From Pristiophorus japonicus (lineage: Eukaryota): DNA of 64,000 bases. The translations under genes and the position numbers were made by a program. A model generated the notes under the pieces. The model was not told the DNA's origin and did not search any database. It worked only from the letters and a program-made list of their open reading frames with translations. Positions 464 to 63,296 of the stretch are shown piece after piece. Within the stretch, counting starts at the first letter, position 1, and each line of letters begins with the position of its first letter. The stretch lies in NCBI RefSeq assembly GCF_044704955.1, contig NC_091989.1, positions 186,930,001-186,994,000 on the forward strand. The letters run 5' to 3'.

Positions 464-1913
464 TAAAAGGTTCCTATGGGACATATCAGGAGGGTAGAGG
501 GATCCTGGAAGTCGATCCAAATCGATTACATCGGGCCCCTACCCACTGCCCAGGGAGGTTACAAGTACTGCCTAGTATTAGTAGATGTATTCACCAAATG
601 GGTGGAAGCCTTCCCATGCCGAACAGCCACTGCCCTGGGAACAGCTAGGATCCTGGTCAGAGAAGTGTTCTCTCGATGGGGACTACCACAATATGTGGAG
701 TCCGACCAAGGGAGTCACTTCATCGGTGATGCAGGAGACCCTTAAGGTACTCGGCATCAAAGGGAAATGTCATGTCGCCCACAACCCACAGACATCCGGG
801 CCTGTGGAGCGATAAAACCATACTATCAAAAAAAGACTGCACAAAGAGACAGGGGACTCACCCAAAAGGTGAGTAGAGGTCCTACCACTGGTCCTCATGG
901 GGATCCGGGCCAGCCAGTCAAAGACCACGGGGTACTCCCCTTACGAGCTCATGACCAGCAGAGCCATGCGAACCCCCACCCATGTGTTAGCCCCGGAACT
1001 CACGGAAGGTCAGCTTAGGGAAGCAAACCGGGACAGCTTTGTCAGGAATCTGTTTGAACACCTTAAACAGATTCAGTGGCAGGCTGCTAACAACATGGGA
1101 ACACAGCATCTGAGCAACCGACTGCTGCTAGAACCCTGCACACACCATGAGTGGGAGATAGGGGACCGGGTTATGGTGAGGAACTACCCTAGAGTAGGGG
1201 TCTTTGAGGCACTGTACATGGGACCGTACCACATTGTCGACAAGGCAAGCCGCATGGTCTATGCCATAAAACTGCCCCGCCGAACAAAGTGGTTCCACAT
1301 AAATCAATGTAAACGTTTCAACCCCGGGGCAGCAGCTAAACGTAAGGGACAGCCAAAAACTGTAAACCCCCTGGGACCCCCATCCAACAGCCCCCGCTGT
1401 GGAAATCCCACAGGGGACGTGGCAGACTGTACCCAGACTGTACCCAGAGGGGCGATGGACTGTGTTACTGGAGGGGCTGTCCCCCCAATCATCTGGGACT
1501 CGGACACACCCCCAGCAGCTGGAGCCTTAAGAAGGACTCCCCGCACACCACGGCCAAAGACACCGTGGTCACCAGCGCTCCAATTTAAATGGTTCAGCCC
1601 CGGGAAAGGGACCAGCTGCAAAAGGGCACCTTAGGTCAGAGACCGGCCCATGAGCAGGGACACCCAGCCGGTAGCCTCGGACAACGAGGGACCCACAGAG
1701 GAGATAGTGGTGGACCAGACACCAAGTGAGAGTCCCCAGCCCGTGGCCCTCAACCAGGCAGAACCCCCAGGGGAAGAAAGGAACCAGGCAGCCACCCCCA
1801 GAGGAGCGATGTGCTGCAGCACCAGAGGGGACGTTCCCCCGATAGTGTGGGACTCAGACCCACGTCCGGTCAGGACACTCCGGGTCCTGCAGTACAGGCC
1901 GATCTATTACTGA
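464..1913 (+). pseudogene. Retroviral-type integrase (rve core, GPY/F module, long Pro-rich C-terminal extension); frameshifted
   Basis: Core reads WKSIQIDYIGPLP...VDVFTKWVEAFP...WGLPQYVESDQGSHF...HNPQTSGPVER...TGYSPYELM. GPY/F module reads GDRVMVR..GPYHIV..WFHINQCK. The pieces are spread over several frames. Confidence 0.9.
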
Positions 1914-2352
1914 CCTTGCTGGACACCCAGCGGGAGAAGAAGAAAGAGAGAAGGCAGGAATTAACCTGGCCTCCCGGAGACGGGTGACAGGTGTACATAT
2001 ATAGTACAATGTGAATTTAAGGATGTTTGGAGAATAAGTTTAGAATAGTGTAAGATTTATCTGTGTAATGATAAATATATATGTATTAGTTAACTGGGGT
2101 AAGGAAAAGAATCTACCTGTGCAGCTGTTAAAAGAAGCACAGGCCGGGTAACACCCGGGAGTAAGAAGAATCTACCGGTATGGCTATTAAGGAAGCACCG
2201 GTGAGATAACAAGCAGAACGACTGTGAGATAAAGTTAAAAGCAATCAGTCCATAAGGAACTGAATGAGACAGCAAGTCGATTAAAGACTATGAGCCCAAT
2301 TTAGAACTCGGTCACCTTTATCAAGCCAGAGAGCTTTCTCAGGGCTGGACAA

Positions 2353-2375
2353 TGTGTTTTATGTGCCCCTACAGG
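2353..2375 (+). promoter_or_regulatory. Putative env splice acceptor
   Basis: tgtgttttatgtgcccctacag|G lies 13 nt upstream of the signal-peptide ATG at 2388, as expected for a spliced retroviral env mRNA. Confidence 0.55.
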
Positions 2376-2387
2376 AGAGAGAGCAGC

Positions 2388-4751
2388 ATGAGAAGGGTCC
2401 TGTTCCTGCTCGCCCTGACAGGGATGAGCAGCAGCGACCGAGGAGAGGTGGAAGAATCCCCCATCTACGGGTGTTCAGGAGGGAGAGCACCGATTGTAAC
2501 CGCCGGGGGTGGCCCCCGAGACGTGGAAGAACTCACCGTTTACACCCACCAGGGAAGGTGGCCAGGGTGTCTGGGATCTAACTCTACCCTCTACTCCAGC
2601 CAGGAAGGGTTTACCTACGGGGAGGCCTCAGTTCCATTCCCCCGATACGGATCGTTGCTGCCCGAGTCAGTGTTACAGAGGGAAAGCGTGTGTTCGACTT
2701 GCAAAGGGAACATTGCCCTGGGAAGATGGTGGTGGCTCAGGAAACTCAGCAAGGACACATGGGACCAGGAATCGGACTGGGAAAGATTGGGTAATGATAC
2801 GTACCTCACCATCACGGGGACACAGGGAGGAGTAACAGTGTGTTGGGACAAAAGGTGGGAATCTGAACAAGGAATTTATGTTTGCATGTGGGATCAGAGA
2901 GTATTTGTCCCACAGGCATATCGATCGCCTTCGCCAGGCAATGGCAAGATGAAGGGGAAGGGATGGGGTGGGATTCTAGCCTACACGGTGCACGGTCCCA
3001 CACTCCCCACTCCCAATTAACACCACCCAACTAAGGGCACACATTAAGAAACCCCCGCCCACAACCCCGCCAATACACACAGTAATAGAAAGGTGTCCTA
3101 TCACCACCAAGGGACCTGGGAACGGATTAGTATTGGTACCGACCGAAAAGATGTTATCCTGGGGGTACATTATGCAGTAGCTTCAGTAATTTTAAACCTT
3201 ACCGAGGTACACCTGCCTGCATGGTGTCTGAAGGAAACAGAGCTGCTATACCAGGCCCTACTTAGAGGCATGTTCAAGAAATGTTATGAGTTAGACTTTG
3301 GAAATGTAGAGAAAGCAGACTTATACACCCTAAACACTAGGGACACCGTGGGCTCAGGGAGACCGAGAAGGGGAATCATAAACAACGTTTTCACTACCTA
3401 CAATACAGCATCCTCTGTAATAAATAGCCCAGATGACATAGAGCTGCAAACACAGATAAACAGTTTAAAGACCCAATTGAGAAAAATCCTGAAACAGGAG
3501 AACACCGTAGTAGGATCAGAACTACACGAGGACCAGGCTATGACTGTCCATTTAAAGGAAATAGTGGCTGAGCTGGAAAAACAAGCACAGACAGTGAATG
3601 CACTCATACGGGAGGATAGAAACTCTTCTGACCAGACTGTACAGAACGAGGTGTGCATACTGTATGGGGCATGGTTATTGGGCGAGGGCCGTAACAACCT
3701 GGAGGATTTAAAACAAGGTGTAGTCCCCTCTTGGATCAGGAACAAGCACCTCACAGCCCTCCACCCGTACAGCAATTCACTAAGCCCGTGCCAGCTCCGC
3801 CTAGCCTCTGAAGCCTACCCTGTCCCAGTAGACTGTGGGAAATCTAACCACACCATTATGGGGATAGTATTAAGGATGCTGGTCATGGGTGGGACAGCCC
3901 AACCCGCACCGGTATACTGGGTGGAGAACATTGGAGTTATTCAGGGAGGTGCACACATTCGTTTCACAGCGGTCCCACCCTATGTCATAAAGTGGGAGCA
4001 CGCTGTGACAGGTACTGACCTCTCTGGGAGCCAGAGCCGGGGTACACACGTAATACTGTGTCCCCAGTACTTGAGTACCCATTCAAAGTCACAGTGTGGG
4101 TTTAAAGCTGCTGGCACACAGCCTTTTAACTGTACCATGGAGGTAATGACACAATACCATGTCCCTCCACAGGTAGCACACATAGGGGCTGGGACATATT
4201 GTGTCACCACCAGTGCGCCCCACGACCAACATGGACACTTCTGGTGTCCGGTAAGTGACAGCAGTTTTTGCTTCAAACCTGAGGCATCAGTTCAAGTGGC
4301 CCAGGAACGGATCGTCCCCATTCCTGAACCCTCCACTGTCTACCTCACTGTGAAGGAAAACATCACAAACCTGCAGGATTATGTTGTACATTTTGTCTAT
4401 GCAATTCCCCCTCTACCCGAACATCTCATCGCTCTGCTAAAAGTTGTAATTATCTCACAAAAACACTTCTATACTCTAGAACAGAAAACCATTGAGATAG
4501 GGAGAAAGATTCTCGAGATCACAATTCCGCCTTGGTGGGACCTTTTCAGAAATATAGAGGTCCCAGTCTGGATCTGAATCGCTTCCCACACTTTAGTTAT
4601 TTGTCAACTCACGATTATACTTTACTTTTGTTGTCTCACTTGCCGAGTGAAACGCAGAGGCCGTCAGGTCAGGCACCAAAGGGTGCTGTACGCTCCTTGG
4701 CCGAACTTGGGAATCGTGCAGGGATGGGTGACACCATACTACCATGTTTAA
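2388..4751 (+). pseudogene. env: env-like glycoprotein gene: signal peptide, Ig-like domain, Pro/Thr linker, class I F-type fusion protein with furin site, TM and cytoplasmic tail; at least two frameshifts and one premature stop
   Basis: Signal MRRVLFLLALTGMSS; furin site RPRR|GIINNV; heptad region ELQTQINSLKTQLRKIL; Cys-rich block; W-rich membrane-proximal PPWWDLF. Reading through TGA 4575-4577 gives the TM IASHTLVICQLTIILYFCCLTC, basic RVKRRGR, and a tail ending at TAA 4749-4751. Confidence 0.82.
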
Positions 4752-5044: not shown

Positions 5045-6381
5045 TGCAGGGTAATGTTTAGCCAGTATAAATGCAGGGAAGGTTGACTCTCAGAAGCAGG
5101 AATTTTGCTGACCTTGATTGACACTCAAGAGTGTGGAGTGTCAACAGGGGCACTGAAGGAGGTGCAAAATTCACAAGAACCCCCCCCACCCTCTCCTCCC
5201 CAGTGTTTGGGCTCATTCGAAAGGAAATTTAATTTGGGATTTTCTACCGAAAAGTTTGGAACTCTAAAGTGCTTATGGAAGAAACTACGAACTTTAATAT
5301 AATTTTGGATTTTAAAAGACAGACTCAAGGCTGTGGGCGGACCCACGGAACGAGCAAGAGACAGTCGAATTAAGTGAAGCTACCTGGGTGTGAGGACTGG
5401 ATTAACCTGTCTGGAAGAATGAGTATTCGAAAATCCTTCCCCCACAAGAGATATTAACATCACAAAATCACCCAGAGGTAGCTACCCATCAACATGGGTC
5501 TGGACAACCATTTCAGCATATACATCACTTAAAGGCCCAATCCAGCCTGTATGTGAAAGACTAAGCACAAAAGGACATTGCAATTACCAAACTAATATTT
5601 TCATCAAGAAACAGTTTTCGAACATCAACCCACCAAAGACATATCAACTTTTAACGAGCCCGACAAAATATTATAAAGAGCCAAGCCCGCCAAAATTATA
5701 CAAAAGATTTTGAACAGATTTGGCGGCAAGATTAGAACCACTGAAATCGTATAACGGGCCCCTGTATCAACAGCGGTTGGGTGGTTGCTGGGTAGCTACC
5801 AGGCTGCTACTACCTCAGATGCCATCCTACACACCAGGTGCTATACTGAGAGTATGTCATCACGACAAGGAGAGAAACCAACGCAACAGTTGTAAACTAA
5901 CTTCTCCAGCCTCGAAGTCCTGAAGTCCTGAAGGAAGGAAGAACATCACCATCGCAGCAGCGACCGACCACAGACAACCTGGTATCAAGGGAAAAACAAC
6001 CGCGATCTACCGTTAGCTATCAAAAGGGTTGGTAAGCATAGTCCCTGCCTGCCCTGGAATCTAACCTAGCTACAATTAGGTATTGGGAAGTGGGAGGTAT
6101 AATTTACTGTGACCCCCTTTGAATGTGTAGTGTATGGTTCTTTATTAGAGTGATTGTAAGTTTGGCTGTGTATTTTCTTACGAGAGTAATAGGCCTGCAT
6201 TGCCCTGACTGTAATAAAAACAAATTTCTTTGCATCAAACCAGTGTCCTTTGCTCTTTTGTCACCCCCCCGACCAGAGTCTAGAACCCAAGGGAGGGGGA
6301 GCGATTTGAAACCGCTCAAGTTGGTCAGAAGTGAACCTGACCCCTTCATAGAGACCACAACCCCCCTTATAAGGGGGTACA
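5045..6381 (+). repeat. Putative 3' LTR (start uncertain: 5045 or 6108)
   Basis: AACGGGGGA (5036-5044) precedes TG at 5045. AATAAA is at 6213-6218 and the region ends TACA. Alternative start: TGTGACCCCCTT at 6108 is an imperfect inverted repeat of the end AAGGGGGTACA and is preceded by GGGAAGTGGGAGG. Confidence 0.55.
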
Positions 6382-6394
6382 TGGGAGCATCTCA

Positions 6395-7016
6395 ATTTTA
6401 CAGGGGGTCCCCAGGAGTGTGTCAGTATTTACAGGGGGTACCCAGGAGCGTGTCAGTATTTACAGGGGGTCCCCGGGAGTGTGTCAGTATTTACAGGGGG
6501 TCCCGGGGAGTGTGTCAGTATTTACAGGGGGTCCCCGAGGGTGTGTCAGAATATGCAGGAGGTCCCTGGGAGCGTGTCAGTATTTACAGGGGGTCCCCGG
6601 GAGTGTGTCAGTATTTACAGGGGGTCCCGGGGAGTGTGTCAGTATTTACAGGGGTCCCCGGGGAGTGTGTCAGTGTTTACAGTGGGTCCACGGGGAGTGT
6701 GTCAGTATTTACAGGAGTCCCCGGGGAGTGTGTCAGTATTTACAGGGGGTCCCCAGGAGTGAGTCAGTATTTACAGGGGGTCCCCGGGAGTGTGTCAGTA
6801 TTTACAGTTGGTCCACGGGGAGTGTGTCAGTATTTACAGGGGGTCTCCGGGGAGTGTGTCAGTATTTACAGGGGTCCCCGGGGAGTGTGTCAATATTTAC
6901 AGGGGTCCCTGGGTGTGTCTCAGTATTTACAGGGGTCCCCGGAGTGTGTCAGTATTTAAAGGGGGTCCCCGGGGAGTGTGTCAGTATTTACAGAGGGTCC
7001 CTGGGAGTGTGTGAGT
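6395..7016. repeat. ~31-bp minisatellite (GAGTGTGTCAGTATTTACAGGGGGTCCCCGG), ~20 copies
   Basis: Tandem units are directly visible. Confidence 0.95.
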
Positions 7017-7702
7017 GTGGGGATCCCCTACACTAAACTATTTGCAAAGCATTGTTCACATGTTGTCTGGTGTTATCCTGTGTGTGTGAGAGGCTAGCTT
7101 TTGCTGCTCGATCCAGGGGTACACATTGTTGGGGCGCGACAGATGTGGTTTTGATGTGATGTAAAACTCCTGTGGAGTCCCCTTGTGGAGTGAGGTGTTT
7201 GTGTTGTGACTGGGAGCAGCAAGGCGCTGGGCCCTCACCAGTCTGTGGTTATTCTCGGGATCAGCCAGTTATGTCAAACAGGGTTCCTCGCTCTGCTGCT
7301 AAAGATAAGACCCTGTGGTAAACAGCCGGATTTAAACACTCTGCAAATGCAGGAAATTATAACCAGAAAACGCTGCTGATTCCCGGCAGCTGCCACAGAT
7401 CACGCAGTGATACAGCACGGCAGGAGGCCATTCGGAAAAGCAATGTGCCTGTTGCCAACATTCTCTGTCTTTAAGCTGCGTGAGTTTAAGAACGGCTTGC
7501 TGGATCTTGTCTGTGCAGGGTGGGTGATATTGTGATCGATCTGTCTCCATTATCGAGCAGTACACACAGGAATACTTAGTCTCTTGGCAAGCACTGAACT
7601 GCTTTTGACCAGTCCATATTTAATGAAAAGGGGAAAATGCATGGAGCAGAATTGCCACATAATCCTCAACGTGACAGAGCAAGAGCTAAGCCGTGTATAG
7701 CT

Positions 7703-7993: not shown

Positions 7994-8282
7994 AAACATA
8001 GAAAACAGGTGCCGGAGTAGGCCATTCGGCCCTTCGAGCCTGCACCATCATTCAATAAGATCATGGCTGATCATTCCCTCAGTACCCCTTTCCTGCTTTC
8101 TCTCCATACCCCTTGATCCCTTTAGCCACAATGGCCATATCTAACTCCCTCTTGAATATATCCAATGAACTGGCATCAACAACTCTCTGCGGCAGGGAAT
8201 TCCACAGGTTAACAACTCTCTGAGTGAAGAAGTTTCTCTTCATCTCAGTCCTAAATGGCTTACCCCTTATCCTAAGACTGTG
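7994..8282 (-). mobile_element. CR1 3' end
   Basis: aaacatagaaa tail followed by aggccattcggcccttcgagcctgcacc; matches the CR1 end at 24814-25125. Confidence 0.9.
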
Positions 8283-10905
8283 ATCCTGGTCCGGGTACTG
8301 ATCCAGGTCCGGGTACTGATCCGGGTCCGGCTACTGATCCGGGTACTGATCCGGGTCCGGGTACTGATCCGGGTACTGATCCTGGTCCGGGTACTGATCC
8401 AGGTTCGGGTACTGATCCAGGTCCGGGTACTGATCCTTGTCCGGGTACTGATCCGGGTTCTGGTACTGATCCGGGTCCGGGTACTGATCCTTGTCCGGGT
8501 ACTAATCCAGGTCCGGGTACTGATCCGGGTTCTGGTACTGATCCGGGTCCGGGTACTGATCCTTGTCCGGGTACTGATCCGGGTCCGGGTACTGATCCGG
8601 GTTCTGGTACTGATCCGGGTACTGATCCTGGTCCGGGTACTGATCCAGGTCCGGGTACTGATCCTTGTCCGGGTACTCATCCTGGTCCGGGTATTCATCC
8701 TGGTCCGGGTACTCATCCTGGTCCGGGTCCTGATCCTGGTCCGGGTCCTGATCCTGGTCCAGGTCCTGATCCGGGTACGGGTACTGATCCGGGTCCGGGT
8801 ACTGATCCTGGTCCGGGTACTGATCCGGATCCAGGTGCTGATCCTGGTCCGGGTACTGATCTTGGTCCGGGTACTGATCCTGGTCCGCGTACTGATCCTG
8901 GTCCGCGTACTGATCCTGATCCGGGTACTGATCCGGGTCCTGATCCTTGTCCGGGTACTGATCCGGGTCCGGGTACTGATCCGGGTTCGGGTACTGATCC
9001 GGGTCCGGGTACTGATCCTGGTCCGGGTACTGATCCAGGTTCGGGTACTGATCCAGGTCCGGGTACTGATTCTGGTCCGGGTACTGATCCTTGTCCGGGT
9101 ACTGATCCGGGTTCTGGTACTGATCCGGGTCCGGGTACTGATCCTTGTCCGGGTACTAATCCAGGTCCGGGTACTGATCCGGGTTCTGGTACTGATCCGG
9201 GTCCGGGTACTGATCCTTGTCCGGGTACTGATCCGGGTCCGGGTACTGATCCGGGTTCTGGTACTGATCCGGGTACTGATCCTGGTCCGGGTACTGATCC
9301 AGGTCCGGGTACTGATCCTTGTCCGGGTACTCATCCTGGTCCGGGTACTCATCCTGGTCCGGGTACTCATCCTGGTCCGGGTCCTGATCCTGGTCCAGGT
9401 CCTGATCCGGGTACGGGTACTGATCCTGGTCCGGGTACTCATCCTGGTCCGGGTCCTGATCCTGATCCGGGTCCTGATCCTTGTCCGGGTACTGATCCGG
9501 GTCCGGGTACTGATCCGGGTTCGGGTACTGATCCGGGTCCGGGTACTGATCCGGGTCCGGGTACTGATCCGGGTCCGGTTACTGATGCCGGTCCGCGTAC
9601 TGATCCGGATCCGCGTACTGATCCGGGTCCTGGTCCGGGTACTGATTAAGTTCCGGGTACTGATCCGGGTCCAGGTACTGATCCGGGTCCAGGTACTGAT
9701 CCGGGTCCAGGTACTGATCCGGGTCCGAGTACTGATCCTGGTCCGGATACTGATCCGGGTCCAGGTACTGATCCGGGTCCAGGTACTGATCCTGGTCCAG
9801 GTACTGATCCGGGTCCAGGTACTGATCCGGGTCCAGGTACTGATCCGGGTCCGAGTACTGATCCTGGTCCGGGTACTGATCCGGGTCCAGATACTCATCC
9901 GGGTCCGGGTACTGGTCCTGGTACTGATCCGGGTCCAGGTACTGATCCTGGTCGGGTTACTGATCCGGGTCCAGGAACTGATCTTGGTCCGGGTACTGAT
10001 CCAGATCCAGGTACTGATCCAGGTCCAGGTACTGATCCGGGTCCGGGTACTGATCCGGGTCCAGGTACTTATCCTTGTCCGGTACTGATCCTGGTCCGGG
10101 TACTGATCCGGGTCCAGATACTCATCCGGGTCCGGGTACTGATCCGGGTCCGGGTACTGATCCGGGTCCGGGTACTGATCCGGGTCCAGGTACTGATCCT
10201 GGTACTGATCCGGGTTCAGGTACTGATCCTGGTCCGGGTACTGATCTGGGTCCAGATACTCATCCGGGTCCGGGTACTAATCCGGGTCCGGGTACTGATC
10301 CGGGTCCGGGTACTGATCTGAGTCCGGGTACTGATCCTGGTCCAGGTACTGCTCCGGGTCCAGGTACTGATCCGGGTCCGGGTACTGATCCGGGTCCAGG
10401 TACTTATCCTTGTCCGGTACTGATCCTGGTCCGGTACTGATCCTGGTCCGGGTACTGATCCGGGTCCAGATACTCATCCGGGTCCGTGTACTGATCCGGG
10501 TCCGTGTACTGATCCGGGTCCAGGTACTGATCCTGGTACTGATCCGGGTTCAGGTACTGATCCTGGTCCGGGTACTGATCCGGGTCCAGATACTCATCCG
10601 GGTCCGGGTACTGATCCGGGTCCGGGTACTGATCCTGGTCCGGGTACTGATCCTGGTCCGGGTACTGATCCTGGTCTGGGTACTGATCTGAGTCCGGGTA
10701 CTGATCCTGGTCCAGGTACTGATCCTGGTCCGGGTACTGATCTGAGTCCGGGTACTAATCCTGGTCCAGGTACTGCTCCGGGTCCGGGTACTAATCCTGG
10801 TCCAGGTACTGATCTGAGTCCGGGTACTGATCCGGTTCCAGGTACTGATCCGGGTCCGGGTACTGATCCTGGTCCGGGTACTGATCCGGGTCCGGGTATT
10901 GATCC
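8280..10905. repeat. 18-bp satellite (ACTGATCCGGGTCCGGGT, 6-bp sub-period), ~2.6 kb, with higher-order duplication
   Basis: Tandem units are visible. The variant order at ~8400-8790 recurs at ~9035-9420. Confidence 0.95.
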
Positions 10906-12428: not shown

Positions 12429-14432
12429 TAAATAGGAGTCGGCCATTCGGCCCCTCGAGCCTGCTCCGCCATTCAATGAGATCACGGCTGATCTTTGTCA
12501 ACTCCACTTTCGTGCCCGATCCCCATATCCCTTGATTCCCTTAACAACCAAAAATCTATCGATCTCTGCCTTGAATATACTCAATGATTGAGCCTTCACA
12601 GCCCTCTGGGGCAGAGAATTCCAAAGATTCACCACCCTCTGAGTGAAGAAATTCCTCCTCAGTCCTAAATGGCCGACTCCTTATGCTGAGACTGTGACCC
12701 CTGGTTCTAGACTCCCCAGCCCGGGGAAAACACCCTCCCTGCATCTACCCTGTCAATCCCTGTAAGTTTGTTGTATTTTTCAGTGAGATCACCTCTCATT
12801 CTTCTAAACTCCAGAGAGTATAGGTCTCTTCTACCCAATCTCTCCTCATAGGACAATCCCCCCATCCCAGGAATCAGTCTGGTGAACCTTCGCTGCACTC
12901 CCTCTATGGCACGTATATCCTTCCTTAGAGATACAGTGATCATGACCATCTATAAAAAAAGGGGACAAGTCTGACTGCAGGAACTACAGAGAAATCTCCC
13001 TGTTATCAGCCACTGGGAAAGTCCTCGTCAACCGTCTTCTCCCTGTGGCCGAGGAGCTCCTCCCGGAGTCACAGTGCGGATTTCGTCCCCTACGGGGCAC
13101 AACAGACATGATATTTGCAGCGCGACAACTGCAGGAAAAATGCAGGGAGCAGCACCAGCCCTTATACATGGCCGCCTTCGATCTTACAAAAGCCTTGGAC
13201 ACTGTCAACTGCGAGGGTCTATGGAGCGTCCTCCTCCGTTTCGGATGCCCCAAAAGTTCGTCACCATCCTCTGCCTGCTTCACGATGACATGCAGGCCGT
13301 AATTCTTACCAACGGATCCATTACAGACCCAATCCACGTGCGGACCGGGGTTAAACAGGGCTGTGTTATCGCCCCAACCCTCTTCTCAATCTTCCTCGCT
13401 GCCATGCTCCATCTCACAGTCAACAAGCTCCCCGCTGGAGTGGAACTAAACTACAGAACCAGTGGGAACCTGTTCAACCTCCACCAGCCTGTCCTCACTG
13501 CACAGCACCGCCCCCCAGTCATCAAGATCCACGGCGTGGCCCTGGACAACGTGACCCATTTCCCTTATCTCGGGAGCCTCCTATGAACAAGAGCAGAGAT
13601 TGATGACGAGATCCAACACCGCCTCCAGTGCGCCAGTGCAGCCTTCGGCCGCCTGAAGAAAGGAGTGTTTGAAGACCAGGCCCTCAAATTTGGCACCAAG
13701 CTCATGGTCTACAGGGCTGTAGTAATACCCACCGTCCTGTATGGCTCAGACACATGGACCATGTACAGTAGACACCTTAAGTTGCTGGAGAAATACCACC
13801 AATGATGTCTCCACAAGATTCTACAAATCCCCTGGGAGGACAGACGCACCAACCTTAGCGTCCTCGACCAGACCAACATCTCCAGCATCGAAGCACTGAC
13901 CACACTCGAGCAGCTCCGCTGGGCAGGCCACATTGTCCACATGCCCCAGACACGAGATTCCCAAAGCAAGTGCTCTTCTCGGAACTTCTTCATGGCAAAC
14001 GAACCAAAGGTGGGCAGAGGAAACGTTCCAAGGACACCCCTCAAAGCCTCCCTGATAAAGTGCGACATCCCCACCGATATCTGGGAGTCCCTGGCCAAAG
14101 ACCGCCCTAAGTGGAGGAAGTGCATCCGGGAGAGCGCTGAGCACCTCGAGTCTCGTCGCCGAGAACATGCAGAAACCAAGCGCAGGCAGCGGAAGGAGCG
14201 TGCAGCAAACCAGTCCCACTCCCCTTCCCTCAACCACTGTCTGTCCCACCTGTGACAGGGACTGTAATTCCCTTATTGGACTGTTCAGCCACCTAAGGAT
14301 TCATGTTAAGAGTAGAAGCAAGTCTTCCTCGATTCCAAGGGACTGCCTATGATGATGATCCTTCCTTCGGTAAGGAGACCAAAACTCTCCACAATACTCC
14401 AGGTTTGGTCTCAGCAGGGCCCTGTATAATTT
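12425..14432 (-). mobile_element. CR1 3' portion (12425-12926 and 14358-14432) split by an RTE insertion
   Basis: CR1 C-terminal translation on the minus strand continues colinearly at 14358. Confidence 0.88.
12927..14357 (+). mobile_element. RTE-BovB-like LINE, 5'-truncated and internally deleted, with 10-bp TSD ATCCTTCCTT
   Basis: PESQCGFRPLRGTTDMIFAARQLQEKCREQ, GVKQGCVIAPTLF, and C-terminal CPTCDRDC..H zinc finger. (TGA)n tail. TSD at 12917-12926 and 14358-14367. Confidence 0.92.
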
Positions 14433-15645
14433 CAGAGACGGAATTAGTGAACGTCTCATGACTCTCTGACTCACCCTATCACTGAATCAATGCACCACAG
14501 TCATCACTGTGTACGCCCCAACACTCGATGCAACAGATGAGACCAAAGAGGGTTCTTACTCCAGTCTCGAAAAATCCCTGTCCCACGTCCCTACGGACGA
14601 CAAACTGATGATCTCGGCGACTTCAACACCAGGGTCGGCAAGTACACAGCCCTCTGGGGAGGTGTGATTGGCAGAGAGGGTAGGGAAAACCAACCCCAGT
14701 GGTACCCTACTCCTGACAAAATGTCTAGAGCACGACCTTGTCACAACCAACACCTTGTTCCACCAGAGGGACAAGTACAAGGTAGCGTGGCAACACCCTC
14801 ACTCCAAACACTGGCACCTGCTCGACTATGTCATCGTCCGAGCCAGGGATCGGAAGGATGTGCACATCACCCGCGCCATGACAGGAGCTGACGACTGCTG
14901 GACAGACCATCGCCTAATCCGATCCATCATCGACATCAACATAGACCCAAAGCAGAGGGGACAGCAGAAGCAGTGTCGCAAAAAAGTCAATGCCGGAGCA
15001 CTTAGAGACCCAGCTAAGAGAGCCCTATACAGCCAGCACCTCACAGCTAACCTGGCGTGCCTTGATGACCCTGAGACGCAGAATGCCCACAGCACTTGGT
15101 CTGCCCTCCAGGCCTCTATAACCAGTGCCTGCGAAGAGACGCTCGGTCACTCAACCAGGAAACACCAGGACTGGTTTGATGAGAATGATCAGGAGATCCA
15201 GGAGCTAATAGATCGCAAGCTCAGGGCATTTCTGAACCTAAAGCAACAACCCAACTCGGGAGCAGCAAAGCAGCTTTACAGATGGCTCAACGCTGAGGTC
15301 CAACAAAACACCCGCGACCAAAAGAACAGGTGGTGGTGGAGAAAGCACAGGAGATACAACATCTGGTCAACATCCATGATGTGTGAGGATTCTTCATCGC
15401 ACCCAAGGCCCCACCCCACTGCTGGCCAAGAATGGGGAAACACTCATCAAGGACACCGAGGCTGTCAGGACCCGCTGGAAGGAGCACTTCGAAGATCTCC
15501 TTGACTGAGACTTTGCCTTTGACTCGAGTGTTCTCGACTCTATCCCGCAGCATGCTACCCGCCCCCATCTCAGCAAAACCCCAGCCCTGCACAAGGTAGA
15601 AAAGGCCATCCGTCAGCTCAAGAACAAGGCAACGGGAGCGGATGG

Positions 15646-15848
15646 TGTTATGTTGAGAATAAATCCACAGGACTGTATCGCAAGCTCAAACTTTTGTGAC
15701 CGTGGTCTCTTTATTCAGACTCCAGTATGAGGAGTCACCTTTTATACCTGCTTGTCCCAGGGTGCACAGGTGACCCTTAGGTCTCCCACAGGTGTGCCCC
15801 CTAGTGGCAAGTCTTACATTTGGGTAAGGTCTACATACATACGTAACA
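15646..15848 (-). mobile_element. Solo LTR (203 bp) with 5-bp TSD GATGG
   Basis: TGTTA...TAACA termini. GATGG at 15641-15645 and 15849-15853. TATAAAA and AATAAA on the minus strand. Confidence 0.9.
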
Positions 15849-16311
15849 GATGGAACCCCCGCTGAGGCACTAAAGTATGGCGGAGAGGCACTATTGGCAT
15901 CAATGCATGACCTCAGCTCTCATCTGAAAGGAGGAGAGCATGCTGGGAGATCTCAGAGACAGTGATCGTGACCATCTTTAAAAAAGGGGACAAGTCCGAC
16001 TGCAGCAACTACAGAGGGATCTCCCTGTTATCAGCCACTGGGAAAGTCATCGCTAGAATCCTCCTCAACCGTCTTCTCCCTGTGGCTGAGGAGCTCCTCC
16101 CGGAGTCACAGTGCGGATTCCGTCCGCTACGGGATACAACGGACATGAACTTTACGGCGCGACAACTGCAGGAGAAATGCCGGGAACTGCACCAACCCTT
16201 ATACATGGCCTTCTTTGACCTTTCAAAGACCCTCGACACTGTTAACCGCGAGGGTCTATGGAAGGTCCTCCTCAGTTTCAGATGCCCCCAAAAGTTTGTC
16301 GCCATCCTTCG

Positions 16312-19300
16312 TGATACGTCCTTATTACACAGTATAAATGCACACGAGGCCCATGCTTGAGAGGTCAGTCTGTGACCTGTCCTTTATTCCTTAGCACTCA
16401 AGTGATGAAGGTGGGTGGAGCTTCCCCTTTTATACCTGAAGGTCCAGGTTAGGAGTGTCTCCCATCTAGTGGTCAGTGTTCTCACGGTGTACAACTTAGG
16501 TCAGTTTATACATGGGTTACAATGCTGGTTGAATACATGACATCACCTCCCCCCCCCAAAAGTCTTATTGGGATCACAGGTTGAGTCTCTCTGGTGGTTT
16601 ACACTCTCTTGTAGAGCGCCCGAGTTGGGGCTCCGGTTGTTGGGCGCTGGCCTGAGTGTTTGCAGTGCCTCAGGCCTGTCCGGACTGCCCACAGTGACTG
16701 GGCTCTCCTCCCTTTGGTTCCGGTGTTCGGTCACCTTTGGTGGAGTGAACTCTACATCGTGTTCTTCCTCTGCTTCTTCTATGGGGTTGCTGAACCTCCT
16801 TTTTGTTTGATCCACATGTTTGCGGCAGATTTGTCCATTGGTAAGTTTAACTACCAGAATCCTATTTCCCTCTTTGGCAACCACAGTGCCTGCGAGCCAT
16901 TTGGGCCCTGCAGCGTAGTTGAGGACAAAAACAAGATAATTTACATCAATGCATCACGCCCTCGCATTCCTGTCATGGTAATGATATTGTGGCTGGCGCC
17001 TGCTCTCGACAATTTCTTCCATATTGGGGTGTATAAGGGATAATTGGGTTTTGAGCGTCCTTTTCATTAGTAGCTCTGCGGGTGGAACCCCTGTGAGCGA
17101 GTGTGGTCGGGATCTATAGGCCAACAGGAGGCGTGATAAGCGGGTTTGTAGGGAACCCCCTTGGAATCTTAGCATCCCCTGTTTGATTATCTGCACTGCT
17201 CGTTCTGCCTGGCCGTTTGAGGCCGGCTTGAACAGTGCCGTTCTAACATGATTAATTGCATTGCCTGCCATGAAGTCCTGGAATTCAGTGCTTGTGAAGC
17301 ACGGGCCATTGTCGCTGACCAAGATGTCCGGTAGACCATGGGCGGCGAACATTGCCCGTAGGCTTTCCACCGTGGCAGAGGATGTGCTTGAATTTAAAAT
17401 GTCACACTCGATCCATTTGGAGTAGGCGTCGACTACAATCAAAAACATTTTCCCCATGAAAGGACCTGTGTAGTCCACATGGATGCGTGACCAAGGCTTG
17501 GCGGGCCATGGCCAGGGGCTAAGGGGGGCTTCCCTGGGCGCATGGCCCAGCTGGGCACACGTGTTGCACCTGCGAACACAATGTTCCACCTGCGAACACA
17601 ATGTTCCAGGTCTGCATCTATCCCTGGCCACCAAACGTGTGACCTGGCAATTGCCTTCATCGTGACAATGCCCGGGTGCCCATTGTGGAGTTCTCTGATG
17701 AACACCTCTCTGCCCATCTGGGGCATGACTACGCGGTTTCCCCACAGTAGGCAATCGGCCTGAATCGAGAGTTTATCCTTGCGCCTGTGAAATGGTTTAA
17801 ATTTCAGGGCATGCCCTGTACGTGGCTGCCCAGTCCCCATTCAGGACACATTTCTTGACTAGAGACAAGTGGTCTCTATTTGTCCAGACTTTAATCTGAC
17901 GGGCTTCAACAGCCATGACCATCTCAGCACCATGCTCGGTAGCCCCCTCAGTGGTGGCTAGTGGGAGCCTGCTGAGTGCATCGGCGCAGTTTTCGGTGCC
18001 CGGTCTGTGCCGAATTGTGTAGTCATAGGCAGCTAATGTGAGTGCCCACCTCTGTATGCGGGCCGATGCATTTGCATTTATGGCCTTGTTGTCGGCCAAA
18101 AGGGACGTTAGGGGTTTGTGATCTGTCTCCAGCTCAAATTTCCTGCCAAAAAGATACTGGTGCATTTTCTTTACCGCATATACACATGCGAGTGCCTCCT
18201 TTTCTACCATCCCGTAGCCCCTTTCTGCCTGGGACAGACTCCTGGAGGCATAAGCTACCGGCTGTAACTGACCCTTGGCATTGACATGCTGCAACACACA
18301 CCCGACACCATAGGACGACGCATCGCACATTAACACAAGTTTCTTACATGGGTCATAAAACGTTAAGATTGTTGGAACATAAATTGTGTGCTCTATTAAA
18401 AGCCCTTTCCTGGCTGTCCCCCCAGACCCATTCACGACCTTTGCGCAGGAGCACGTGTAGCGGCTCTAGCAGCGTGCTCAATTTGGGAAGAAAGTTACCA
18501 AAATAGTTCAGGAGCCCCAGGAACGAACGCAGCTCCGTCGTGTTACGGGGTCTGGGTGCTCTCTGGATCGCTTCCGTCTTGGATACAGTAGGGCTGATCC
18601 CGTCTGCTGCTACCCTCATCCCCAGGAATTCTACCTCTGGAGCGAGGAAGACGCACTTCGCCTTTTTCAGTCGCAGACCTACCCGGTCCAGTCTGCGAAG
18701 CACCTCCTCCAGGTTATGAAGGTGTTCTTCAGTATCGTAACCCGTAATGAGGATGTCGTCCTGAAAAACCACCGTCCCTGGAATCGACTTGAGGAGGCTT
18801 TCCATATTTTGTTGGAAGATCGCGGCGGCCGAGCGAATCCCGAACGGACATCTGTTGTACTCAAACAACCCCTTGTGTGCCGTGATGGTGGGCAGCTTCT
18901 TCGACTCACTCGCCAGCTGCTGGGTCATGTAAGCTGAGGTCAGGTCCAATTTTGAAAAAAGTTTGCCACCAGATAGCGTCGCAAAGAGGTCCTCCGCTCT
19001 CGGTAGCGGGTACTGGTCTTGGAGTGACACCCGATTGATGGTGGCCTTTTAATCGCCACATATCCTGACCGACCCACCCGCCTTGAGCACCGGCACAATC
19101 AGGCTCGCCCAGTCACTGAATTCGACTGGCGAGATGATGCCTACCCTCAACAGGCGGTCCAATTCGCCTTCTATCTTTTCCCGCATCACGTACGGCACCG
19201 CTCTGGCCTTGTGGTGTACTGGTCTGGCGTCCGGGTTTATGTGAATCACTACCTTGGCCCCCATGAAAGTGCCAATGCCAGGTTGAAATAATGAGTCAAA

Positions 19301-20404
19301 TTTGTCCAGGACCTGAGAGCATGATACTCGCTCCACAAAGGAAATTGCATTGACATCGCCCCATTTCCAGTTCATGACAGCAAGCCAACTCCTCCCCAGT
19401 AGTGCGGGACCGTCCCTTGGGACAATCCAGAGTGGCAACCTGTTCTCCGAATCTTTGTGGGTCACGACTACCGTGGCGCTGCCTCGCACCGGAATGATCT
19501 GCTTTGTGTAAGTCCGTAGCTGTGCATCAATCGGCGATAATTTTGGCCTCCTGGCCTTGGATGCCCACAATTTTCCAAATTGTTTGATACCCATCACGGA
19601 CTGGCTGGCCCCCGTGTGTAACTCCATTGATACTGGGATGCCATTGAGGAGCACTTTCATCATTATCGGTGGCGTCCTGGTGCATTAACTGTATACGTGC
19701 TCCACATGAACTCGCTGAACTTCAGCTTCCAGCGATTTCCCCCAGTGTCCATTTCTGCAATTTCTGCAGGTATTTTGCTCATCTCTGCAAACTCCGGCTG
19801 AATGTGTACCTCCACGCCTTCAGAATGAGTTGCGGTTTGAAACAAAAGGTCCCTTGCCAGTCGATCGTCCCTGACAGTCCCTGTTATTGTCCTTGAGTGC
19901 ACCATTAACAGGTGTTGATGGCCCCATTACTAGCCGCATTGTCCCTTGCAATGGCGTGAATCGCTGTTCAGCTTGCCATCGTCTCTGTTGAACTCCCCCT
20001 CTGGGTTCGACTACATGTTGGGGCATGCCCGACTGCCCTTGTCTGCCTGGAGAACTGTGTGCTGCTTTAACAATGTTGAATCTCTGTCCCAACCATTCCT
20101 TAACACAGTACCTCTCGTCTGTTCTGCTAGTGGCCATGCTCGCGTGGTTTAAATCCCAGTTTCTTGTCGCCATTGATACGTCCTTACTACACAGTATAAA
20201 TGCACACGAGGCCCATGCTTGAGAGGTCAGTCTGTGACCTGTCCTTTATTCCTTAGCACTCAAGTGATGAAGGTGGGTGGAGCTTCCCCTTTTATACCTG
20301 AAGGTCCAGGTTAGGTGTATCTCCCACCTCGTGATCATTGTTCTCACGGTGTACAACTTAGGTCAGTTTATACATGGGTTACAATGCTGGTTGAATACAT
20401 GACA
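16312..20404 (-). mobile_element. Ty3/Gypsy LTR retrotransposon (Mag/K02A2.6-like): two 231-bp LTRs, gag largely deleted, pol frameshifted, TSD CTTCG
   Basis: LTRs at 16312-16542 and 20174-20404. TSD at 16307-16311 and 20405-20409. PPT 16543-16557; PBS TGGCGACAAG next to the 5' LTR. Protease (L.TGA), RT (FQDD), RNase H (CDAS, ETDHKPL) and integrase (HxGH..C..C, IHVDY, SDNG, NGQAER). Confidence 0.95.
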
Positions 20405-47855: not shown

Positions 47856-50800
47856 ATCTGTATACTGACTGGTGTCTCTCAGTCCCTCTCCCTCAGGGAG
47901 ATATCTGTACACTGACTGGTGTCTCTCAGTTCCCTCTCCCTCAGGTAGATATCTGTACATTGACTGCTGTCTCTCAGTTCCCTCTCCCTCAGGGAGATAA
48001 CTGAATACTGACTGGTGTCTCTCAGTCCCTCTCCCTCAGGGACATATCTGTACACTGACTGGTGTCTCTCAGTCCCCTCTCCCTCAGGGAGATATCTGTA
48101 CACTGACTGGTGTCTCTCAGACCCTCTCCCTCAGGGGGCACTCTGTACACTGACTGGAGTCTTTCAGTCCCTCTCCCTCAGGGAGATATCTGCACACTGG
48201 CTGGTGTCTCTCAGTCCCACTCACTCAGGGAGATATCTGTACAATGATTGGTGTCTCTCAGTCCCTCTCTTTCGAAGAAATATCTGCACACCGACTGGTG
48301 TCTCTCAGTCCCTCTGCCTCAGGGAGATATCTGTAAATTGACTGGTGTCCCTCAGTCCCTCTCCATAAGGGTGATATCTGTACACTGACAGCTGTCTCTC
48401 AGTCCCTCTCCCTCAGGGAGATATCTGTAGACTGACTGGTGTTTCTCAGTCCCTCTCCCTCAGGGACATAACTGTAGACTGACTTGTGTCTCTCGGTCCT
48501 TCCACTCAGGGAGAGATCTGAACACTGACTGATGTCTCTTACTGCCTCTCCCTCAGGAAGATGTCTATCCACTGACTGGTGTCTCTCAGTCCCTCTCCCT
48601 CAGGGAGATATCTGTACACTGACTGGTGTCACTCAGTCCCTCTCCCTCAGGGAGATATCTGTACACTGACTGATGTCACACAGTCCCTCTCCCTCAGAGT
48701 GATATCTGTACACTGACTGGTGTCTCTCAGGCCCCTCTCCCTCAGGGTGATATCTGTACACTGATTGGTGTCTGTCAATCCCTATCACTCAGGGAGATAT
48801 CTGTACACTGATTGGTGTCTCTCAGGCCCCTCTCCCTCACGGTGATATCTGTACACTGATTGGTGTCTGTCAATCCCTATCACTCAGGGGGATATCTGTA
48901 CATTGACTGGTGTCACTCAGTCAATCTCCCTCAGGAAGATATCTGTACACTGACTGGTGTCCCTCAGTCCCTCTCCCTCAGAGTGATATCTGCACACTGA
49001 CTGGTGTCTCTCAGTCCCTCTCCCTCAGGGAGATATCTGTACACTGACTGGTGTCCCTCAGTCCCTCTCCATCAGAGTGATATCTGTACACTGACTGGTG
49101 TCTCTCAGTCCCTCTCCCTCAGGGAGATATCTGTACACTGACTGGTGTCTCTCAGTCCCACTCCCTCAGGGTGATATCTGTACACTTACGGGTGTCTGTC
49201 AGTCCCTCTTCCTCAGGGAGATATCTCTACACTGACTGGTGTCTCTCAGTCCCACTCCCTCTGGGAGATTTCTGTACACTGACTGGTGTCTCACAGTCCC
49301 TCTCCCTCATGAAAATATCTGTACACTGACTGGTGTCTCCCAGTCCCTTTCCCTCAGGGGGTTATCAGTACACTGACTGGTGTCTCTCAGTCCCTTTCCC
49401 TCAGGGAGATATCATTACACTGACTGGTGTCTCTCAGTCCCTCTCCCTCAGGGAGATATCTGTACACTGACGGGTGTCACACAGTCCCTCTCCCTCAGGG
49501 AAATATTGGATACTGACTGGTGTCTCTCAGTGCCACTCCCTCAGGGACATATCTGTACACTGACTGGTGTCTCTCGGTCCCCCTCCCTCAGGGAGATACC
49601 TGTACATTGACTGGTGTCTCTCAGTCCCTCTCCCTCAGGGAGATATCTGTACACTGACTGGTGTCTCTCAGTCCCACTCCCTCTGGGAGATTTCTGCACA
49701 CTGATTGGTGTCTCTCAGTCCCTCTCCCTCAGGGAGATATCTGAACACTGACGGGTGTCACACAGTCCCTCTCCCTCAGGGAAATATTGGATACTGACTG
49801 ATGTCTCTCAGTCCCACTCCCTAAGTAGATATCTGTACACTGAATGGTGTCTCTCAGTCCCACTCCCTCAGGGTGATATCTGTATACTGACTGGTGTCTG
49901 TCAGTCCCTCTTCCTCAGGGAGATGTCTGGAAATTGAATGGTGTCTCTCAGTCCCTCTCCCTCAGGGAGATATCTGTACACTGACTGGTGTCTCTCAGTC
50001 CCACTCCCTCTGGGAGATTTCTGCACACTGATTGGTGTCTCTCAGTCCCTCTCCCTCAGGGAGATATCTGAACACTGACGGGTGTCACACAGTCCTTCTC
50101 CCTCAGGGAAATATTGGATACTGACTGGTGTCTCTCAGTCCCACTCCCTCAGGGAGATATCTGTACACTGAATGGTGTCTCTCAGTCCCACTCCCTCAGG
50201 GTGATATCTGTATACTGACTGGTGTCTCTCAGTCCCACTCCCTCAGGGACATATCTGTACACTGACTGGTGTCTCTCGGTCCCTCTCCCTCAGGGAGATA
50301 TCTGAACACTGACGGGTGTCACACAGTCCTTCTCCCTCAGGGAAATATTGGATACTGACTGGTGTCTCTCAGTCCCACTCCCTCAGGGAGATATCTGTAC
50401 ACTGAATGGTGTCTCTCAGTCCCACTCCCTCAGGGTGATATCTGTATACTGACTGGTGTCTCTCAGTCCCACTCCCTCAGGGACATATCTGTACACTGAC
50501 TGGTGTCTCTCGGTCCCTCTCCCTCAGGGACATATCTGTACACTGACTGGTGTCTCTCAGTCCCACTCCCTCAGGGACATATCTGTACACTGACTGGTGT
50601 CTCTCAGTCCCTCTCCCTCAGGGAGATATCTGCACACTGGCTGGTGTCTCTCAGTCCCACTCACTCAGGGAGATATCTGTACACTGATTGGTGTCTCTCA
50701 GTCCCTCTCTTTCGAAGAAATATCTGCACACCGACTGGTGTCTCTCAGTCCCTCTGCCTCAGGGAGATATCTGTACACTGAATGGTGTCTCTCAGTCCCA

Positions 50801-53800
50801 CTACCTCAGGGTGATATCTGTATACTGACTGGTGTCTGTCAGTCCCTCTTCCTCAGGGAGATGTCTGGAAATTGAATGGTGTCTCTCAGTCCCTCTCCCT
50901 CAGGGAGATATCTGTACACTGACTGGTGTCTCTCAGTCCCACTCCCTCTGGGAGATTTCTGCACACTGATTGGTGTCTCTCAGTCCCTCTCCCTCAGGGA
51001 GATATCTGAACACTGACGGGTGTCACACAGTCCCTCTCCCTCAGGGAAATATTGGATACTGACTGGTGTCTCTCAGTCCCACTCCCTCAGGGAGATATCT
51101 GTACACTGAATGGTGTCTCTCAGTCCCACTCCCTCAGGGTGATATCTGTATACTGACTGGTGTCTCTCAGTCCCACTCCCTCAGGGACATATCTGTACAC
51201 TGACTGGTGTCTCTCGGTCCCTCTCCCTCAGGGACATATCTGTACACTGACTGGTGTCTCTCAGTCCCACTCCCTCAGGGACATATCTGTACACTGACTG
51301 ATGTCTCTCAGTCCCTCTCCCTCAGGGAGATATCTGCACACTGGCTGGTGTCTCTCAGTCCCACTCACTCAGGGAGATATCTGTACACTGATTGGTGTCT
51401 CTCAGTCCCTCTCTTTCGAAGAAATATCTGCACACCGACTGGTGTCTCTCAGTCCCTCTGCCTCAGGGAGATATCTGTAAATTGACTGGTGTCCCTCAGT
51501 CCCTCTCCACAAGGGTGATATCTGTACACTGACTGGTGTTTCTCAGTCCCTCTCCCTCAGGAAGATATCTGTACACTGGCTGGTGTCTCTCAGTCCCACT
51601 CACTCAGGGAGATATCTGTACACTGATTGGTGTCTCTCAGTCCCTCTCTTTCGAAGAAATATCTGCACACCGACTGGTGTCTCTCAGTCCCTCTGCCTCA
51701 GGGAGATATCTGTAAATTGACTGGTGTCCCTCAGTCCCTCTCCACAAGGGTGATATCTGTACACTGACTGGTGTTTCTCAGTCCCTCTCCCTCAGGAAGA
51801 TATCTGTACACTGGCTGGTGTCTCTCAGTCCCACTCACTCAGGGACATAACTGTAGACTGACTTGTGTCTCTCGGTCCTTCCACTCAGGGAGAGATCTGT
51901 ACACTGACTGATGTCTCTTACTGCCTCTCCCTCAGGAAGATGTCTATCCACTGACTGGTGTCTCTCAGTCCCTCTCCCTCAGGGATCAGGGAGATATCTG
52001 TAAACTGACTGGTGTCACTCAGTCCCTCTCCCTCAGGGAGATATCTGTACACTGAATGGTGTCTCTCAGTCCCACTACCTCAGGGTGATATCTGTATACT
52101 GACTGGTGTCTGTCAGTCCCTCTTCCTCAGGGAGATGTCTGGAAATTGAATGGTGTCTCTCAGTCCCTCTCCCTCAGGGAGATATCTGTACACTGACTGG
52201 TGTCCCTCAGTCCCTCTCCATCAGAGTGATATCTGTACACTGACTGGTGTCTCTCAGTCCCTCTCCCTCAGGGAGATATTTGTACACTGACTGGTGTCTC
52301 TCAGTCCCACTCTCTCAGGGTGATATCTGTACACTGACGGGTGTCTGTCAGTCCCTCTTCCTCAGGGAGATATCTCTACACTAACTGGTGTCTCTCAGTC
52401 CCACTCCCTCTGGGAGATTTCTGTACACTGACTGGTGTCTCACAGTCCCTCTCCCTCATGAAAATATCTGTACACTGACTGGTTTCTCCCAGTCCCTTTC
52501 CCTCAGGGGGTTATCAGTACACTGACTGGTGTCTCTCAGTCCCTCTCCCTCAGGGAGATATCTGCACACTGACTGGTGTCTCTCAGTCCCTCTCCCTCAG
52601 GGAGATATCTGTACACTGACTGGTGTCTCTCAGTCCCACTCCCTCTGGGAGATTTCTGCACACTGATTGGTGTCTCTCAGTCCCTCTCCCTCAGGAAGAT
52701 ATCTGAACACTGACGGGTGTCACACAGTCCCTCTCCCTCAGGGAAATATTGGATACTGACTGGTGTCTTTCAGTCCCTCTCCCTCAGGGAGATATCTGTA
52801 CACTGAATGGTGTCTCTCAGTCCCACTTCCTCAGGGTGATATCTGTATACTGACTGGTGTCTGTCAATCCCTCTTCCTCAGGGAGATGTCTGGAAATTGA
52901 ATGGTCTCTCTCAGTCCCACTCCCTCAGGGACATATCTGTACACTGACTGGTGTCTCTCGGTCCCTCTCCCTCAGGGACATATCTGTACACTGACTGGTG
53001 TCTCTCAGTCCCACTCCCTCAGGGACATATCTGTACACTGACTGGTGTCTCTCAGTCCCTCTCCCTCAGGGAGATATCTGCACACTGGCTGGTGTCTCTC
53101 AGTCCCACTCACTCAGGGAGATATCTGTACACTGATTGGTGTCTCTCAGTCCCTCTCTTTCGAAGAAATATCTGCACACCGACTGGTGTCTCTCAGTCCC
53201 TCTGCCTCAGGGAGATATCTGTAAATTGACTGGTGTCCCTCAGTCCCTCTCCACAAGGGTGATATCTGTACACTGACAGCTGTCTCTCAGTCCCTCTCCC
53301 TCAGGGAGATATCTGTACACTGACTGGTGTTTCTCAGTCCCTCTCCCTCAGGAAGATATCTGTACACTGGCTGGTGTCTCTCAGTCCCACTCACTCAGGG
53401 ACATAACTGTAGACTGACTTGTGTCTCTCGGTCCTTCCACTCAGGGAGAGATCTGTACACTGACTGATGTCTCTTACTGCCTCTCCCTCAGGAAGATGTC
53501 TATCCACTGACTGGTGTCTCTCAGTCCCTCTCCCTCAGGGATCAGGGAGATATCTGTACACTGACTGGTGTCACTCAGTCCCTCTCCCTCAGGGAGATAT
53601 CTGTACACTGACCGATGTCCCACAGTCCCTCTCCCTCAGAGTGATATCTGTACACTGACTGGTGTCTCTCAGGCCCCTCTCCCTCAGGGTGATATCTGTA
53701 CACTGATTGGTGTCTGACAATCCCTATCACTCAGGGAGATATCTGTACACTGATTGGTGTCTCTCAGGCCCCTCTCCCTCACGGTGATATCTGTACACTG

Positions 53801-62487: not shown

Positions 62488-62533
62488 ATGGCGAGTGCTG
62501 CTTGTCTCGGTGTCCTTCTGGCCTGTGTGATGG
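62488..62533 (+). CDS. Antigen-receptor V gene leader exon (MASAACLGVLLACVM-G)
   Basis: 46-nt hydrophobic leader ending in phase 1 at G|GTGAGT. Intron 62534-62641 ends with a polypyrimidine tract and CACAG. Confidence 0.92.
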
Positions 62534-62641
62534 GTGAGTTATTGTGCACCCAGTGCTGCCTGGCTTGTCCGGGAGGCTGTGTGAGCCCGTGTTGTTCCCT
62601 ATATTAAAGTGCACCCTTCTCACTCTCTCTTCTGTTCACAG

Positions 62642-62935
62642 GCGTGCGGTCCGCTATCGAGCTGAGACAGTCTGCTGCTGCCGTGAAACGGCCCGGGGAG
62701 TCTCACAAACTGTCCTGTACAATCAGTGGCGACAGCAGCTACTACCTGAGCTGGGTTAAACAGGCCCCCGGGCAAGGGCTGGAGTGGCTGGCGCGTGTCG
62801 ATTATGATGATGACAAGTTTTACTCACCTGGACATCGAGACCGATTGACCGTGTCCAAGTCCGGCAACACCGCGTACCTGGAAATCCGCAAACTGACAGC
62901 CGGCGACACCGCCATCTATTACTGTGCGGATGGCA
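62642..62935 (+). CDS. Unrearranged IgH-like V gene segment (IgW-VH-like or TCR-associated Ig-like V), intact
   Basis: GVRS-AIELRQSAAAVKRPGESHKLSC..WVKQAPGQGLEWL..RLTVSK..AYLEIRKLTAGDTAIYYCA. Conserved Cys, Trp and YYC; no stops; followed by an RSS. Confidence 0.95.
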
Positions 62936-62974
62936 CACAGTGAGAGGAAGCAGGGCTGGGCTGGTACAAAAACT
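62936..62974 (+). other. Recombination signal sequence, 23-bp spacer
   Basis: CACAGTG (62936-62942), 23-nt spacer, ACAAAAACT (62966-62974). Confidence 0.96.
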
Positions 62975-63296
62975 CAGCCGCACTACAGTCAGGGGAATCA
63001 GTGAAAGGGGAAGCACCATGGCTCACCCCCAGCCTCGCCGTGTTGGGATCTGTCCCCCCCCGTGAATGGGAGAGGGCATTAGCTGGGAAGCCCCAGGATC
63101 ATACAGCCCAGAGCCCCCCCCCCCCCACAACCCACTGTCTGCACACCCCACCCACCGTCTGACCCCCGTCCCCACCCATCATCTACCTCCCCCCCCTCCC
63201 GGGAATGGGAGAGGGCATTAGCTGGAAAGCTCCAGGATCATACAGCCCAGAACCCCCCTCAACCCACCATCTGCCCCCCGTCCCCCAACCCACCGT

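Follow-up and report, generated by a model that had tools for sequence, protein, structure and literature searches.

A probable immunoglobulin-like head joined to a predicted F-type fusion protein in the envelope of a dead sawshark endogenous retrovirus

The stretch analysed here, a window of 64,000 nucleotides from Pristiophorus japonicus (contig NC_091989.1, positions 186,930,001 to 186,994,000), carries near its start the front end of an envelope gene (env) in a dead endogenous retrovirus (ERV). On balance, the envelope protein (Env) is best read as an N-terminal arm with probably an immunoglobulin (Ig) fold, a Pro/Thr-rich linker and a predicted F-type fusion protein, the arm likely being an attachment head. 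The head on this F-type Env is real and under constraint, its fold is probably Ig, and the parts of the layout are known from other Env classes. No description of an Ig head combined with an F-type Env was found in the literature searched, a scope outside which most subscription papers and the supplements of PMC4422223 and of the bioRxiv preprints fell.

As it stands in the window, env is a dead copy, for which no function was seen. Arm, linker (KKPPPTTPPIHT) and F module are split over different open frames, and a premature stop precedes the predicted transmembrane anchor. Against most of the 28 aligned copies (30 loci minus two near-duplicates), small deletions are seen at five places, near 2643, 2685, 2889, 2986 and 3160, each present in a minority only (2 to 8 of the 28). 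Other copies read through in a single frame: at loci L016 and L008, naturally open frames of 569 and 566 amino acids run from signal peptide through arm and linker into the F1 part, and the skate proteins P0004 and P0008 and the Logan protein P0005 share the layout at 54-67% identity. The proposal of an earlier note on this DNA, that Ig domain, linker and F form one chain, therefore holds for the family through these continuous frames and fails for the frame-broken window copy itself. The junction between arm and F2 is open in 26 of 56 loci by position, at least two of them with a register change; loci selected by protein are biased toward intact copies, and in the DNA-selected subset 9 of 28 are open across it. 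A whole-gene open copy of this env family was absent among the copies listed.

The family is abundant. A genome search scored 40 loci among 3,360 candidates at 89-100% DNA identity, a skate-protein query scored 110 among 14,466 candidate loci, and the copies are spread over many contigs. Two sister copies have long terminal repeat (LTR) pairs of 88-93% and 89% identity, which marks those insertions as old. Sequence upstream of the window, like two sister copies, contains a coiled-coil frame, gag with a zinc knuckle, protease, reverse transcriptase (RT), tether, RNase H and integrase; within the window, env sits between integrase remnants and an LTR (Table 1). The nearest named proteins come from a sawshark and a skate.

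Comparison between copies indicates that the arm was maintained as protein. The loci form eight groups, 64-85% identical between groups, and the ratio of nonsynonymous to synonymous change (dN/dS) was computed over 143 between-group pairs, with at most six copies per group. The Ig core gave 0.13 (95% interval 0.08-0.19), the first part of the arm 0.17, the linker 0.47 and F2 0.09, while the Ig core read in the two other frames gave 1.71 and 1.27; the pairs are not independent and divergent copies were chosen by protein similarity, and the frame contrast is nonetheless large. Differences by codon position (0.14, 0.11 and 0.41) are concentrated on third positions. The arm is under purifying selection as strong as that on F2, which answers the selection check proposed earlier. 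One locus, L054, is an apparent mosaic, its arm like the main subfamily and its fusion part like a divergent one, and was dropped from this set.

The core of the arm probably has an Ig fold, judging from sequence signatures and fold ranking. The spacing of the signature is canonical, with a B-strand Cys, a C-strand Trp and an F-strand Gly-x-Tyr-x-Cys, the two core Cys lying 61 residues apart (window 2700 and 2883) as originally reported. These Cys occur in 26 of 26 and 23 of 24 rows and the Trp in 26 of 26; the Asp usual before Gly-x-Tyr is mostly Glu or Gln. The second Cys pair suspected earlier is real and was understated, with eight arm Cys conserved, each in 22-26 of the 23-26 covering rows; the pairing of 2691 with 2841 would follow from strand register. 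The arm is also longer than the roughly 110 amino acids first assigned to the domain, at about 190 residues. All five motifs quoted at the outset are found in the translation of 2352-3020, and the Trp cluster, both core Cys and the linker lie in the family's frame. ESVLQRES and LAYTVHG, taken as Ig strands (the latter as the G strand), are off-frame readings because of window deletions absent from most copies: ESVLQRES falls between the first two deletions and LAYTVHG after the third. Unbroken copies and the skate proteins have different residues there, which fit an Ig A'-B strand better.

Formal searches lean the same way without reaching significance. Pfam matched nothing in the window's own translations, for arm or F, whereas in-frame relatives gave Ig_3 matches below the cut-off (best 18.6 bits against a curated 30; 15 of 29 members at E<=1). 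Sequence profiles, PDB sequence matches and fold ranking all point toward Ig, none above threshold; profile searches of PDB returned no significant match, Foldseek against PDB and BFVD none at E<=0.001, and ESM Atlas no usable match for the arm. The beta sandwich expected earlier is tentatively predicted, with V-type Ig domains as best matches; a single-sequence fold (predicted local distance difference test, pLDDT, 34) was left unused. The first ~70 residues of the arm match a frog Env V domain weakly (5.6 bits, reached by 0 of 200 and 1 of 300 shuffles), a match not repeated with its homologue P0074.

For capture from an identifiable host gene, as first proposed, no donor was recovered: no host Ig protein appeared among 11 matches, and none was recognised among 47 (12 Pfam-scanned), such searches being blind to matches so weak. 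An ancient capture from a host gene is the probable origin of the head, which has since diverged beyond recognition of a donor; the capture probably dates at the latest to before the shark and skate lineages of the element separated or crossed hosts.

The fusion part is predicted to be of paramyxovirus-F type. Its layout comprises a predicted signal peptide, the furin-type site RPRR, a predicted fusion peptide, heptads, a Cys-rich domain and a predicted anchor, and ESM Atlas returned 0.93 for Baculo_F and 0.90 for Fusion_gly on a sister copy (195 and 186 of 256 features shared). Scans of the window and of the relatives' Envs gave no direct Pfam match for the F part (PF00523/PF12259-like). A homologous Env from a second retroviral family, which aligns with that of the window family over 511 columns (probability 99.9), reaches 26.4 bits on PF00523 against a cut-off of 29.8.

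This second family, also of high copy number in the same genome (L071 and L073-L094, e.g. C2:267204980-267208267; 40 scored among 1,205 candidates), has RT motifs of the same snakehead-like type. In place of the arm it carries a different Cys-rich head of ~110 amino acids followed by a Thr/Pro linker, and this head matched neither Ig nor the arm. A profile search of 1.84 billion representatives yielded 47 matches, of which six long ones were read. Among these relatives, the Logan protein P0074 carries a V-type head lacking Cys (V-set E 0.045). This head shares 43% identity with the tail of P0019, a frog Pol gene model with an RT that is one of the nearest to the window element's (49%). The P0019 tail itself matches V-type exons of the sawshark genome weakly (E 0.17-0.7). 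P0019 and P0074 represent F-type Envs whose head is a clean V-type Ig domain without Cys, and they offer the best candidate for donor tracing. The bamboo shark protein P0056 carries the automatic UniRef label Ig-like domain-containing; the frog protein P0065 shows Ig-like motifs by eye, with no Pfam match; the shark proteins P0055 and P0068 have in common another Cys-rich head; and P0083 has none. No convincing alignment was obtained between the arm and the heads of these relatives. A cluster of Cys-less V-type exons was also noted at L068-L070 (G000:C33, 3.37-3.54 Mb), with V-set E values of 4e-5 and 0.002 for the two scanned; we take these exons and the P0019 tail to resemble CEACAM/CD2-family genes.

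Since related envelopes carry other heads or none, the Ig head is likely a swappable cell-binding module. A broader picture is possible and is put forward tentatively: snakehead-like, rather than loki, retroviruses of sharks, skates and frogs may have in common an F-type core whose N-terminal end accepts interchangeable heads. Host Ig domains, captured independently, would have filled this position in some (a CEACAM/CD2-like V in frogs; here an Ig with many disulfides, perhaps two in tandem), and unrelated Cys-rich heads in others. If true, this would parallel, on an F-type core, the exchange of heads among gamma Envs and offer a natural model of a fusion protein gaining its own attachment domain.

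The strongest matches of the element's RT are to retroviral RTs (E 5e-54; Pr125Pol 4e-49), with Ty3 scoring lower (1e-38). Over a 51-residue RT block, identities counted by hand are 36 with snakehead retrovirus, 29 with walleye dermal sarcoma virus (WDSV), 26 with Loki-Lca, 26 with feline foamy virus (FFV) and 23 with Loki-Ape. A lokiretrovirus assignment is thereby weakened, the RT motifs being closer to snakehead retrovirus (36/51) than to Loki (26 and 23/51); among the named RTs compared by hand, the closest core is that of snakehead retrovirus (clade Huo, PMC6001957). RT_RNaseH and RNase_H both match, a dual RNase H that fits lokiretroviruses but is common to canonical retroviruses too, and the F-like Env that lokiretroviruses also have is here a prediction from ESM Atlas features. 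A quick RT tree sets the element apart from Gypsy-type RTs; because the tree lacks reference taxa, with no named Loki or snakehead RT in it, the snakehead-like placement stays a lead. Snakehead-like elements are known in cartilaginous fish from CmiERV lineage I of the elephant shark (PMC4422223). In Table S2 of PMC7947760, if the asterisk is taken to mark presence, the five cartilaginous-fish genomes checked are without it, and one of these unmarked species is the bamboo shark of P0056. Viral contigs searched with RT and Env gave no relative. Should the RT placement hold, F-type Envs would reach canonical retroviruses beyond the foamy and loki viruses.

Several other accounts of the arm deserve consideration. 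That it is separate from F or non-coding, that F is joined to it only across frameshifts, or that it was recently captured from the neighbouring V segment is highly improbable: in the window, arm and F do occupy different open frames and a V segment lies at 62608-62943, but the frames are open in many copies and in skate, dN/dS is 0.13 and the copies lie on many contigs. A link between the arm and this V segment was rejected (-0.7 bits, reached by 9 of 200 shuffles); the arm shows no similarity to it, so the distance of ~60 kb is the coincidence the earlier note had allowed for. A constrained viral domain, beta-rich and disulfide-bonded, could also mimic Ig motifs with no descent from the Ig superfamily. 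The Ig scores of the arm, all below threshold, its eight Cys and many Trp (atypical for Ig) and the Cys-rich heads without Ig match in sister families speak for such mimicry, yet it is quite unlikely given that profiles, PDB sequence matches and fold ranking point to Ig, that the Cys-Trp-(Gly-x-Tyr-x-Cys) spacing is canonical and conserved, and that clearer Ig heads occupy the same slot in relatives.

Instead of binding an entry receptor, an Ig-like arm might modulate immunity through an inhibitory receptor or shield the prefusion trimer by masking it. The clean head in relatives resembles what we take to be CEACAM/CD2-type Cys-less V exons present in this genome, and weak BFVD matches, all at E>0.01, include viral immunomodulators. 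Headless relatives also exist (P0083 and the published lokiretrovirus Env), so the core can apparently work without a head. Against this reading, headless F proteins such as that of respiratory syncytial virus (RSV) can bind cells themselves, so a head can add attachment to a core. The position of the arm and its linker also match the receptor-binding arrangement described for type-C gamma Envs (bioRxiv 2024.03.17.585361), and we consider the modulator or shield unlikely.

For the arm as an attachment head, the working model draws on the IgV-like domain and proline-rich region of type-C gamma Envs and on the foamy Env, whose F-like core carries a binding domain of its own. Cleavage by furin at RPRR would keep the arm attached to F2. 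Each trimer would present three heads, tethered by flexible linkers, to bind a protein or glycan on the cell surface, after which F1 would refold and drive membrane fusion.

Table 1. Features of the provirus in the window, with positions counted from its first nucleotide.
Feature	Position	Strand	Basis and remarks
Integrase remnants, core and C-terminal SH3-like part, frame-broken	467..1631	+	Pfam rve E 1.5e-11; SH3_Tf2-1 E 1.6e-4, below cut-off; gag and rest of pol upstream of the window (L031)
Predicted Env signal peptide	2388..2435	+	Met then hydrophobic stretch
Arm, first ~70 residues; constrained; possibly remnant of a second V-type domain	2436..2647	+	dN/dS 0.17; pLDDT under 50; weak frog Env V-domain match
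Probable Ig-like core, frame-broken here	2648..2944	+	Core Cys 2700 and 2883; Trp cluster of the C strand around 2730; further probable Cys pair 2691 and 2841
C-terminal end of arm with last conserved Cys	2945..3009	+	dN/dS 0.18 (residues 183-222 of P0001); Cys in 22/23 rows
Pro/Thr-rich linker	3010..3093	+	dN/dS 0.47, weaker constraint
F2-like segment, ending in furin-type site RPRR (3360-3371)	3094..3371	+	By eye, start similar to N terminus of mature lokiretrovirus Env
F1-like ectodomain with predicted fusion peptide, heptad repeats and Cys-rich domains, cut off by premature stop	3372..4577	+	ESM Atlas features of sister copy
Predicted transmembrane anchor, behind the stop	4578..4640	+	Read from sequence; in frame in other copies
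3' LTR, approximate ends	5150..6372	+	Matches sequence lying upstream of gag at L031, L032 and L034

Other features of the window and of the family were noted in passing. After the integrase, positions 1635-1990 hold a Pro-rich stretch with an internally repeated motif (…PPIIWDSD… / …PPIVWDSD…), found in many copies, and this may represent either the tail of integrase or a small accessory reading frame. The stretches 1-460 and 12700-20200 hold long interspersed nuclear element (LINE) remnants, one of them interrupting the provirus integrase, and a separate Gypsy-type LTR element on the minus strand. Tandem repeats include a 31-bp array directly after the LTR (6370-7020), a short-unit array (8280-10900) and a long satellite (about 48000-62000). 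The latter adjoins the antigen-receptor V gene segment (62488-62975), in which an open V exon follows an apparent leader exon and a recombination signal of the 23-bp spacer type starts at 62936. The public gene models P0006, P0009 and P0010 splice env pieces onto zinc-finger and Niban-like genes; these chimeras may be annotation artefacts or exonisation.

Paramyxovirus F-type fusogens work with a separate attachment protein, and the earlier note had accordingly regarded a single chain combining attachment and F as itself unusual. This was overstated, as both foamy virus and type-C gamma Envs provide precedents. As described in PMC11468914, the foamy virus Env is a single-chain retroviral protein with a core like paramyxovirus and pneumovirus F and a built-in receptor-binding domain; that domain, however, is an internal insertion (residues 217-543) with a previously unseen fold, and not an N-terminal Ig head on a linker. 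The lokiretrovirus Env resembles the present one in its F-like organisation with signal peptide, furin site, heptads and anchor, and the virus shares the dual RNase H and a coiled-coil frame ahead of gag, but in the 7 of 24 consensus starts compared from PMC7947760 (Wang and Han 2020) the F2-like part follows the signal peptide directly, with no head. Type-C gamma Envs, in the account of bioRxiv 2024.03.17.585361, are alike in layout: an N-terminal IgV-like head (RBD-C) is joined by a flexible proline-rich region, heads have been exchanged between lineages, and one host capture, of a SIRP-like IgV into an alpha-like Env, is reported, EnvP(b)1 also belonging to this class. They differ in having an orthoretroviral core of surface and transmembrane subunits (SU/TM) where an F-type core is found here, and no donor is recognisable in the present case. 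Relatives with different heads or none make the coupling of attachment to an F core directly comparable. If the reading of the arm as an attachment head is true, a linker-borne Ig head at the N terminus would add a third arrangement to the separate attachment protein of paramyxoviruses and the inserted binding domain of foamy virus.
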